From Candidatus Bathyarchaeia archaeon (GTDB taxonomy: Archaea; Thermoproteota; Bathyarchaeia; TCS64), in assembly GCA_050014495.1 (NCBI GenBank), contig JBEKDF010000010.1:1-64000 (forward strand): DNA of 64,000 nt, written 5' to 3'. How positions within the stretch are numbered: the first letter of the stretch is position 1; each line of letters opens with the position of its first letter. A program made the position numbers and the translations under genes. Positions 11,814-15,290 of this stretch are shown here, piece after piece. A model generated the notes under the pieces. That model saw nothing but the letters and a program-made list of their open reading frames with translations, did not search any database and was not told the origin of the DNA.

Positions 11814-11908
11814 TCTAATCGTCTCCCGTCGATGAATCAATCGATCCATGTCGATTTGCTTATATAGAAACCTGTTAACTTACTCCTAGTTTCCGGATAG
11901 GGGTAGAT

Positions 11909-12943
11909 ATGAAAACTCTAATCAGGGTCGGCATATCGGGCTATGGTGCCTATGTGCCGATGTATAGGCTCAAGGCCGCCGAGGTAAACCGCATGTGGAG
12001 TACTTCGGGGGAGCCCGTCGAGGAGAAGGCCGTCGTCGCCCTCGATGAGGATACTGTCACTATTGCGGTCGAGTGTGCGCGCCAGGCGGTTAGACGCTCC
12101 GGGGTCGACCCTGCCAAGATAGGCGCTGTGTACGTAGGCACAGAATCGAAGCCCTACGCCGTCAAGCCCTCGGGCACAATAGTCGCGGAGGCAATAGGTG
12201 CCACCCCCAGCGTATCCACAGCTGATTATGAGTTTGCCTGCAAAGCCGGCACCGAGGCGATGCAGGCCTGCATCGGCTTCGTTGGTAGCGGGATGCAGAA
12301 ATACGCAATGGGAATAGGCGCAGATACCGCGCAGGGTAAACCAGCTGACGCACTAGAGTATACCGCAGCCTGCGGCGGCGCTGCTTACCTATTCGGTCCG
12401 GCGGACGAGGGTGTCGCCGAGCTCGAGGCATCATACAGCTTCGTTACGGATACCCCCGACTTCTGGCGCAGACCAAAAGAGATGTACCCACGTCACGGCA
12501 ACAGGTTCACAGGGGAACCAGCCTATTTCAAGCACATCACAAGCGCGGGAAAGGCGTTGCTCGCCGAGACAGGTTACAAACCAACAGACTTTAAGTGGGC
12601 AGTCTTCCACCAGCCAAATGCAAAGTTCCCCATTAACGTCGCTAAGATGCTTGGATTTGGCATGGATCAGATCAACCCCGGCCTCGTCTCACCCGTAGTA
12701 GGTAACACCTACGCGGGCAGCAGCCCGCTTGGCCTCGCCGCGACTCTAGATATTGCCGAGCCCGGCGACAGAATATTTATGGTCAGCTACGGTAGCGGCT
12801 CAGGAAGCGATGCTTTCGTATGGAAGGTCAGGGAGTCCATAAAGCATCGTCGCGGTGGACCGAAGGTCAAGAGCTACATAGATAGGAAGAGGTACGTCGA
12901 CTACGCGACCTACCTCCGTCACAGGGGGCAGATAATAGTATGA
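11909..12943 (+). CDS. Hydroxymethylglutaryl-CoA synthase (archaeal)
   Basis: [18 protein letters not shown] (catalytic Cys), [29 protein letters not shown]. Confidence 0.95.
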
Positions 12944-14082
12944 GAAAGGTAGCAATCGCCGGAATAGGCTTCACAAAGATCGGTGAGCCCTGGGAGAGGA
13001 ACATAAAGGAGCTCTTCGCGGAGGCCGCACTTAACGCAATGAAGGACTCGACATGCAATGAGATTGATCAGCTTTACGTCGCTAATATGATGGGTGCTCA
13101 CCTACAAGGACAGATAGGTATGGGTGCCATGATGGCGGAGGCTATAGGTAGACCTGGCATACCTGCGGTGAGGATCGAAGCCGGACAGGCAAGCGGAGGG
13201 GTCGCTTTCAATGAGGGTGTAAAAGCTGTTGCCTCAGGGTTCAGCGACTGGGTTCTCGTAGGTGGCGTCGAGAAGATGAGCGACCTCCTCCCAGAAGCCG
13301 TAACGACAGCTCTCACATACGCCGAGGATCAGGAATATACGGCGTATACCGGCGTCACAAAAATTGGGCTTTCAGCAATTCTCCATAGGCTCTACAGCCA
13401 CGAGTACGGTGTCACACCCGATGAAATAGGATGGTTCGCAGTGAGAAGCCATGACAATGCCGTCGGCGTTTCGCACGCTCAATACCCTTTCAAACTCAGC
13501 ATCGAACGCGTGATGACAAGCCCAATGGAAGCCGACCCCATCCGGATGATGGAGTGCGCGGCGGTGGCAGATGGTGCAGCAGCCGTGATCCTTGGACCTG
13601 CAGACAGTGTTGCCAATGGAATCGAGGTTGCAGCCTCTTCGGTCGCTACCGACCACTTATCCCTAGCATCCCGCAAACACCCACTCACTCTAGAAGCTGT
13701 CAAGAAGGCAGCAGCCAAAGCGTATGAGATCGCCAAGGTTAATCCTAAAGACATCGACGTGCTCGAGGTAAATGACGACACAACAATTGACGGTGTTCTT
13801 AGCCTCGAGGACCTAGGATTCGCTGAGAAAGGAAAGGGGGCAAAATTCGTGACGCAGGGATATACTACACGTACGGGTGAGATCCCAACGAACAACTTTG
13901 GCGGTCTCAAAGCCCGTGGTAACCCCATAGGAGCGACTGGCCTTTACCAGATCGCAGAGACTGTGATTCAGCTCCGCGGGAAGGCTGGGGCGAATCAGGT
14001 CCCCAATGCGAAGATTGGAATGGCCCAAAGCATGGCGGGGGTAGGTTCAACATGCTCCGTGGCTATCCTCAGAAGGGTCTGA
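12940..14082 (+). CDS. Thiolase-family protein (archaeal acetoacetyl-CoA thiolase fold; catalytic residues substituted)
   Basis: [33 protein letters not shown] overlap with [18 protein letters not shown] and RGNP replace the canonical Cys/His/His motifs. Confidence 0.9.
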
Positions 14083-14083
14083 T

Positions 14084-14476
14084 ATGAGTGTGCCTAGATA
14101 TTGGCGCGAGGAGAAGCCCCGTTATAGGCTGATGGGCGAAGAATGCGTAAAATGCGGAGCCAAATATTACCCAAGGACACCCATTTGCAGCTGCGGTGGG
14201 GCTGAGTTTAAACCATACAAACTCGCGGAAACGGGAAAAGTCAAAAGCTGGACCGTGATAAGAAACGCCCCCATTGGCTACGAAAGGTTCACCCCTTACA
14301 TAGTAGCGCTCATAGAATTGGATGATGGCGTCCAGATCCTTAGCCAAGTTGTTGATGTCGAGCCTGAGGCTGTCAAGAGTGGGATGAGGGTCGAGTTCAC
14401 CTTCCGAAAGGTTACAGAGGACGGGCAGGCAGGACTTATTCAGTATGGCTATAAATTCCGTCCCATGGTCGAGTAA
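14084..14476 (+). CDS. DUF35 Zn-ribbon/OB-fold scaffold protein
   Basis: CxxC...CxC, PYIVALIELDDG, YGYKFRP; canonical third gene of the HMGCS-thiolase operon. Confidence 0.93.
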   Translation: MSVPRYWREEKPRYRLMGEECVKCGAKYYPRTPICSCGGAEFKPYKLAETGKVKSWTVIRNAPIGYERFTPYIVALIELDDGVQILSQVVDVEPEAVKSGMRVEFTFRKVTEDGQAGLIQYGYKFRPMVE

Positions 14477-14585: not shown

Positions 14586-15290
14586 ATGCCAAAGAAGTTA
14601 TCTGTTGGCGTTATCGGTGATTTTCAACCAACTTATGAGACACACATCGCCACGAACCAGGCTTTTCACAACTCCGCGGATCGACTCGGGGTAGAAGTGA
14701 AAGTTGAGTGGCTTCCTACCCTTACACTCTATGGAAACACCGAGGAGCAGATGGAACATTTCGACGCATTCCTTTGCGCCCCTGGCAGTCCCTACAAGAG
14801 TGCAGAAGGGGCTCTGAATGGGATCAGGCTCGCCAGGGAGAATGATCACCCCTTCCTCGGCACATGTGGTGGGTGCCAGCATGCGATCATTGAGTTTGCG
14901 AGAAATGTTATGGGAATAGAGGATGCGGAGCACGCAGAGGAACATCCTGGTGCGACTAACCTCTTTGTCACCCCACTCACTTGCTCGTTGGTGGGCAAGA
15001 TTGAGGAGGTGAAGATCATGGCAGGATCACAAGCATTCAAGGTCTACTCTGCCCTGAGTACGAATGAAAAGTTTTACTGCAACTATGGTTTGAACCCTTC
15101 CCGGAGGGCTGAGGTTGAGGAAGCGGGGTTAAAAGTCTCTGGCCTAGACGCTAGTGGGGAGGTTAGGATACTCGAGCTTCCGAAGGCACGTTTCTTCTTT
15201 GCTACACTCTTCGTCCCGCAGGCTACTTCCACACCAGAGTACCCACATCCCATGATAACGGGTCTACTGCGCTCCGCCCTCACGACATAG
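14586..15290 (+). CDS. Stand-alone CTP-synthase-type glutamine amidotransferase domain protein
   Basis: PGSPYKS, PFLGTCGGCQH, CNYGLNP, FFFATLFVPQ; no synthase domain. Confidence 0.85.
   Translation: MPKKLSVGVIGDFQPTYETHIATNQAFHNSADRLGVEVKVEWLPTLTLYGNTEEQMEHFDAFLCAPGSPYKSAEGALNGIRLARENDHPFLGTCGGCQHAIIEFARNVMGIEDAEHAEEHPGATNLFVTPLTCSLVGKIEEVKIMAGSQAFKVYSALSTNEKFYCNYGLNPSRRAEVEEAGLKVSGLDASGEVRILELPKARFFFATLFVPQATSTPEYPHPMITGLLRSALTT

Follow-up and report, generated by a model that had tools for sequence, protein, structure and literature searches.

A predicted non-catalytic thiolase in the HMG-CoA synthase operon of Bathyarchaeia and the recurrent loss of its catalytic cysteine

Organization of the locus

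The window, i.e., the whole stretch of 64,000 nucleotides of a Candidatus Bathyarchaeia archaeon that was analysed, contains three adjacent genes in the order HMG-CoA synthase (HMGCS), thiolase and DUF35, an order that is kept in the relatives. The reading frame of HMGCS runs 4 bases into that of the thiolase, and the start of DUF35 lies 1 base past the thiolase stop. The features considered here are as follows.

11909..12943, + strand: archaeal HMGCS, 344 aa, with the E79/C111/H234/N266 tetrad intact
12940..14082, + strand: 380-aa subunit of thiolase fold, lacking the catalytic Cys and both His
13186..13188, + strand: Gln83 (CAG), at the nucleophilic Cys of the CxS motif, placed by phmmer alignment
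13555..13557, + strand: Cys206 (MECAA), an ordinary family residue that live enzymes also have, by sequence no substitute nucleophile
13771..13779, + strand: Asn278-Asp279-Asp280, at the HDxF motif, placed by alignment (Asn278 codon 13771-13773)
13921..13923, + strand: Asn328 (ARGNPIG), at the His of the GHP motif, placed by alignment
14053..14055, + strand: Cys372 (GSTCS), frequent in this order, not fixed among dead thiolases
14084..14476, + strand: DUF35 adaptor, 130 aa, with a ChsH2-like zinc ribbon and OB fold

The HMGCS scores 523 bits against NCBIfam PRK04262 (cut-off 244) and is the sole HMGCS found in the genome, in which HMG-CoA reductase was also found. All four Cys of DUF35 are invariant among the aligned sequences. 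As regards the flanks, TTATATAG lies at 11860-11867, about 42 bases upstream of the HMGCS start, and looks TATA-box-like by eye; directly after the operon, at 14586-15290, there is a stand-alone glutamine amidotransferase related to the C-terminal part of CTP synthase (PRK06186, above cut-off).

Loss of the catalytic residues

The original prediction was that all three catalytic positions of the thiolase are replaced while its reading frame is intact and the HMGCS keeps its Glu, Cys and His, and each of these points is borne out. The frame at 12940-14082 is unbroken, and the HMGCS tetrad is invariant in 28 of 28 aligned sequences. In the phmmer alignment Gln83 pairs with the Cys of EAACASG both in 7YVY (Pyrococcus furiosus) and in 6ESQ (Methanothermococcus), Asn328 pairs with the His of GHP/GHA in the same two proteins, and Asn278, as counted on that alignment, pairs with the His of EVHD, which is His284 of 6ESQ. 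The residues that mark an active thiolase, namely the CxS Cys, the HDxF His (here NDDT) and the GHP His (here GNP), are thus all replaced, and the scores fall below the NCBIfam thiolase cut-offs (363 of 600 and 393 of 420). The thiolase fold is retained, with the AlphaFold model having a pLDDT of 84 and the top Foldseek matches being 7YVY and 6ESQ at TM 0.90-0.94.

According to the available part of PMC12960953, which makes the comparison with 6ESQ, HMG-CoA was no longer formed from acetyl-CoA when the archaeal complex carried the mutation H284A. Since one single His-to-Ala change at the position of Asn278 is already enough to stop HMG-CoA formation, the operon thiolase is expected to be unable to condense or cleave. 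Judged by its three defining residues, it is not an active thiolase.

Spread through the lineage and beyond

The alignment consists of 151 partly redundant rows, made up of 120 database proteins and 31 loci, with one row being the live paralogue described below. Cys83 is missing in 147 of the 150 orthologue-like sequences, the position being occupied in these partly redundant rows by S (91), Q (40), A (6), E (4), T (4), C (3) and D (2). His278 is kept in 70 and His328 in 20 of the 150 rows (71 and 21 of 151 when the paralogue is counted), while Asp or Glu is present at position 280 in 141 and Asn at position 328 in 127 of the 151. The relatives at 57-65% identity are labelled Bathyarchaeia in the source databases. 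It is noted that the loss of all three residues, as originally predicted, holds in this genus, where the Cys and both His are gone, but not lineage-wide, where solely the Cys loss is near-universal; nor is the loss the peculiarity it had been taken for, being instead recurrent and widespread. By these counts the Cys was lost first, with the His residues eroding lineage by lineage. The three rows with Cys83 (P0081, P0092, P0115) are nested among Ser83 relatives and keep Asp280 and Asn328, which looks like drift back to Cys.

In the survey of the class, the HMGCS-linked thiolase could be read in part of a 161-genome sample, and 77 of the 95 genomes with a readable operon thiolase beside an intact HMGCS carry a dead copy. 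Among the type A operons (HMGCS, thiolase, DUF35) the copies are dead in families f1, f2, f4, f9, f12 and f14 and live in families f5, f10, f16, f20, f23 and f26. A second clade of dead copies, comprising 38 sequences whose Cys loop is shortened and whose motifs are YDQS and GNP, is found among the type B operons, in which the thiolase precedes an HMGCS-DUF35 fusion. Outside the class, dead copies were seen in three Chloroflexota records and in one record each of Thermoplasmata, of a Methanobacteriota-labelled lineage (MV2.Eury) and of Thermoproteota, amounting to 5 lineage labels and 6 of 80 loci, besides two Bathyarchaeia loci.

A FastTree tree of 236 rows, with the motif columns dropped, gives 7 changes of state, one of which is due to an unlinked pair. 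An AU test on 35 rows, with the long branch L049 excluded, rejects a tree in which the dead copies of Chloroflexota join those of the archaeal type A operons (p 3e-5), and does not reject a single clade for the latter (p 0.36). In these phylogenies the Chloroflexota group lost the Cys independently, and a single origin of all type A dead copies of the class is neither shown nor rejected. As read from these genomes, the dead operon thiolase is real, lineage-wide and recurrent.

Several other arrangements were observed in the survey. In one genome (L121, in G064:C52) a frameshift breaks the dead thiolase in two, which is either an assembly error or decay. At L217:853-3226 (G039:C7) there are tandem Cys-less thiolase-like genes with a DUF35, unlinked to HMGCS, whose motifs are NDLF/GYG and YDPF/GNP, with YDxF recalling the thiolase-like aldolases. 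Mirror-image operons of the same class (L145-L151, L260) have a live thiolase, an HMGCS-like gene without the catalytic Cys and a DUF35, and resemble the Pseudomonas fluorescens complex of PMC12960953. A different operon, whose HMGCS-DUF35 fusion is preceded by a live thiolase, occurs at L155, L158 and L161 (in G001, G010 and G007) and at L164, L169 and L152; of the carriers, three belong to the genus of the window, another two to its family and a further one to its order. In G001 and G010 no thiolase was found besides this live one.

Other thiolases and the supply of acetoacetyl-CoA

In the genome, which is 96% complete, exactly two thiolases were found, and the search for a Cys-retaining paralogue that the original prediction had proposed thus returned one:

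Contig C37 of this genome, 9355-10587: second thiolase, with CASS/HDCF/GHP intact, above the PRK06064 cut-off

The C37 thiolase is followed by its own DUF35, with a 3-hydroxyacyl-CoA dehydrogenase-crotonase fusion gene on the opposite strand and ETF genes nearby. It is 36% identical to the operon thiolase and falls in a different clade. Among the loci of its relatives, DUF35 adjoins in 28 of 29 and the dehydrogenase-crotonase gene in 26 of 29.

That acetoacetyl-CoA for mevalonate synthesis would have a different supply, as had been implied from the outset, is supported by this intact paralogue and by the class, in which another thiolase is present in 73 of the 77 dead-operon genomes vs. 4 of the 18 live-operon genomes, kin not being independent in this count, so that a Fisher test of it overstates the contrast. 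Of the 73 second thiolases, 48 are confirmed by motif and 25 by score alone; they were judged by place, score or motif, since matches can be halves of one gene, and the count excludes G079 (Cys region unread), thiolases running off the contig and operons with a dead HMGCS. Two dead-operon genomes without an archaeal-type spare carry a bacterial-type thiolase, a type present in 7 of the 161 class genomes. Another thiolase was not found in four of the 77, namely G017 (84% complete), G064 (86%), G054 (97%) and G100 (95%), the last two of which also gave no strong match to a 3-hydroxyacyl-CoA dehydrogenase. HMG-CoA reductase drops out in 7 of the 161 genomes, and the four genomes without a spare are near that miss rate; genomes such as G054 and G100 could mark another supply route. 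In the genome of the window no acetoacetate ligase (TIGR01217) and no bacterial-type thiolase scored over cut-off, and no separate KAS III/NphT7-like gene was found.

Selection and conservation

The substitution rates were calculated pairwise by NG86, with several dS values being saturated. In comparison with the four genomes of the same genus (85-91% identity) that gave a measurable dS, the operon thiolase has dN of 0.049-0.088 and dS of 1.7-2.6, the latter near saturation, and dN reaches up to 0.23 in more distant or saturated pairs. The dN of the live paralogue (0.064-0.108) is about equal to it, and that of HMGCS is about half of it. By these rates the operon thiolase is under strong purifying selection. 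A pseudogene is ruled out by this selection together with the loci of the same genus, and a sequencing error by the presence of Gln83 in 15 of 15 operon loci of that genus (L002-L015, L019).

C83, H278, C280, H328 and N364 of the live paralogue do not vary (21 of 21 genomes each), and the operon copy of the same 21 genomes is variable at all five columns. A wider entropy contrast, 1.17 vs. 0.21, is left aside as a test in favour of these five motif columns, since its sites were chosen partly for their variability in dead copies. When 34 dead type A sequences are set against 47 live ones, 68 of the 115 positions conserved in the live operon thiolases are kept in the dead ones and 47 are relaxed, including F141, P208, F281, E134 and H60. 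A further 16 positions are conserved in the dead copies and not across the live ones; because most of them are shared with the nearest live relatives, they are inherited rather than new.

A non-catalytic subunit of the HMGCS complex

Based on the above results, we consider it probable that the operon thiolase is a subunit without catalysis on which HMGCS depends for its CoA site and its folding, and that the complex receives its acetoacetyl-CoA from elsewhere. At the interface of HMGCS and thiolase in the solved complex there is a single CoA site common to the two, and archaeal HMGS is reported to be inactive alone, both in the available part of PMC12960953; archaeal HMGCS is also 50-100 residues shorter than the bacterial ones (PMC11522927, available part). 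Both sources cite the 2018 paper on the complex for this. Therefore, a genome with another acetoacetyl-CoA source may lose the chemistry of the thiolase and not the protein.

The mechanism would be as follows. The operon thiolase would have lost its chemistry, carrying out neither condensation nor cleavage, and would still assemble with HMGCS and DUF35, completing the shared CoA site, a role expected for it because archaeal HMGCS is reported inactive alone. Free acetoacetyl-CoA would be made by the intact C37 thiolase-DUF35 pair or, alternatively, would come from the degradative action of the neighbouring 3-hydroxyacyl-CoA dehydrogenase-crotonase fusion. Given such an outside supply, the chemistry of the operon thiolase would be redundant while its surface would not. 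The conserved body, the drifting pocket, the varied replacements and the spare thiolase all fit this role, and the scaffold option offered in the original prediction is the one consistent with all the evidence gathered. As a speculation, an active thiolase beside HMGCS would also cleave the incoming acetoacetyl-CoA, so that its loss could be favoured.

Several points count against the scaffold role, among them the four dead-operon genomes in which no other thiolase was found, the 25 second thiolases counted by score alone, the frequency of Asp/Glu280 in this order and the three Cys83 rows. In addition, because the thiolase residues are lost, the channelling of acetoacetyl-CoA from the thiolase to HMGCS is predicted to be absent, and with the channelling lost the uphill reaction would be without its pull. 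Moreover, seven loci have an HMGCS whose motifs look intact and no thiolase next to it, so a scaffold gene in the neighbourhood is not always required. An HMGCS of about 500 aa with Cys, HQP and GNTY motifs, and with no thiolase in the fetched flanks, occurs at L170, L254-L259 and L261.

Alternative explanations

A bolder form of the non-catalytic reading, which we regard as unlikely though worth stating, is that the disarmed thiolase is a capture device that binds catabolic acetoacetyl-CoA and shields it against thiolysis, or directly docks the degradative thiolase and dehydrogenase, so that in many archaea lipids would be fed by catabolism and not by acetyl-CoA condensation. If this were true, the entry to isoprenoid synthesis would be rewired in many archaea.

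A new catalytic job, using Asp280 and Asn328 either for a retro-aldol reaction as in Ltp2/Sal or for malonyl-CoA decarboxylation as in ketosynthases with Cys changed to Gln or Ser, seems to us improbable. The Cys-to-Gln ketosynthase gives a precedent for a decarboxylase, and Asp/Glu280 and Asn328 are frequent among the 151 rows, as counted above. In the available part of PMC12329534, Cys-less thiolase folds with DUF35 act as aldolases with their catalytic residues at the positions of 278 and 280, the latter being the position of the catalytic Cys of the aldolase Sal, and that of PMC11522927 describes polyketide beta-branching in which HMGS receives its substrate from a ketosynthase dead for condensation. 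However, H, Q, T, M, N and S all occur at position 278; position 280 is D or E in just 20 of the 34 sequences of the balanced dead set and is Ser in 3 of the 21 genomes of the order; there is no Sal-type Tyr278/Cys280 pair; malonyl-CoA is not evident, with no acyl-CoA carboxyltransferase found in the 96% complete genome; and the second dead lineage has different motifs (YDQS and the shortened Cys loop). With no catalytic residue fixed, new chemistry becomes less likely, and the variable replacements and the drift of the other pocket residues argue in the same direction.

A mixed dimer of dead subunit and live paralogue, or a docking of the paralogue on HMGCS through the dead subunit, with the channelling being kept, is a quite improbable arrangement, although it would agree with the presence of a live paralogue in 25 of the 27 dead-operon genomes of the order and with thiolases being dimeric within the solved complex (PMC11522927, in the part available). 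The paralogue is 36% identical, belongs to a different clade and lies at a separate locus with its own DUF35 (28 of 29 loci), and other dead-operon genomes have a spare thiolase from other subfamilies or of bacterial type, a variation not compatible with a fixed heterodimer. The heterodimer originally suggested finds no support here and is less likely, since the spare thiolase varies with the lineage and comes with its own DUF35. It is noted that different thiolase/DUF35 pairs within one genome are known (10.1101/2024.07.05.601840, in the part available).

We give very little weight to a ligand-binding or regulatory subunit that would hold acetoacetyl-CoA or CoA and tune HMGCS beyond passive scaffolding: E110-K111 (E111 K112 in window numbering), H171, D211, D279 and the GGLK...G.P.GATG stretch are kept, but the fold explains these residues equally well and the acyl-pocket positions drift freely. 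Finally, a still-working thiolase using Cys206 or Cys372 as nucleophile, the outcome that the original prediction had named as speaking against itself, is rejected by sequence as scarcely credible: within the order Cys206 is in 21 of 21 operon copies and Cys372 in 17 of 21 genomes, but neither behaves as a required residue, with Cys206 occurring in 36 of the 47 live type A thiolases and in 23 of the 34 dead ones, in 21 of 21 live paralogues and, beside the true nucleophile, in 6ESQ, with Cys372 present in 21 of the 34 dead ones (absent from 13), with dead sequences such as L030, L126, L127, L130 and L132 having neither, and with both His gone as well in the operon thiolase.

Significance

In the standard view, it is the thiolase/HMGCS/DUF35 complex that enables archaea to carry out the first, uphill step of the mevalonate pathway, and the literature consulted regards this complex as near-universal. 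In that literature, which was mostly without subscription papers, supplements and the 2018 complex paper, no description of a Cys-less thiolase in an HMGCS/thiolase/DUF35 operon was found. The 2018 complex paper, by Vogeli et al., reportedly includes a genome survey, in which Cys-less copies may be mentioned. In PMC11052028 the word "thiolase" is absent.

For the non-catalytic subunit proposed here, the annotation of such operon thiolase genes as EC 2.3.1.9 would be wrong, and the heterologous use of such HMGCS genes would need both the dead partner and another thiolase. These operons also offer a natural test of whether the structural role of the subunit is separable from channelling, and of the repeated birth of a pseudoenzyme in a core pathway.

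Comparison with known systems

By its gene context and fold, the operon thiolase belongs to the HMGCS/thiolase/DUF35 complex. The Methanothermococcus thermolithotrophicus complex (6ESQ/6ET9) has the same gene trio, gene order, HMGCS tetrad and DUF35 zinc ligands, and its thiolase has the same fold (TM 0.94, 38% identity), with Cys85, His284 and the His of GH being Gln, Asn and Asn in the operon thiolase. Unlike in that complex, acetoacetyl-CoA is predicted not to be makeable in place by the operon thiolase. The best match in both sequence and structure is 7YVY (Pyrococcus furiosus PFC_04095; 322 bits, 42% identity), a member of the HDAF-type subfamily that gave rise to the dead lineage; 7YVY keeps CAS, HDAF and GHP, whereas the operon thiolase does not. 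The decarboxylating Cys-less ketosynthases (KS0, KSQ) retain their His pair and use a malonyl donor. In the operon thiolase both His are gone, and no carboxyltransferase was found.

A Cys-less thiolase fold with a DUF35 partner, as here, is also present in Ltp2-ChsH2, Sal-Shy and TbSLP (6OK1, 5AB4; PMC12329534, available part). The Ltp2 and Sal aldolases, as described there, have a fixed new catalytic YDxF/Y and a hydratase partner, whereas the operon thiolase is 22% identical to them, has no fixed residue at that place and partners HMGCS; where the aldolases have Tyr at the HDxF His together with Cys or a second Tyr, it has Asn278 and Asp280, in a variable column.

PhlABC, MucABC and the Pseudomonas fluorescens ACAT/HMGS-DUF35 (PMC12960953) are the same tripartite complex, in which one dead enzyme is kept as a needed partner. 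As far as the available part of that source goes, these complexes are the mirror image of the present operon, with a dead HMGS-like subunit and a thiolase that has its Cys. The Friedel-Crafts acyltransferases PhlC/MucB keep CxS and GHx while their HMGS partner is dead; the operon thiolase shows the opposite pattern.
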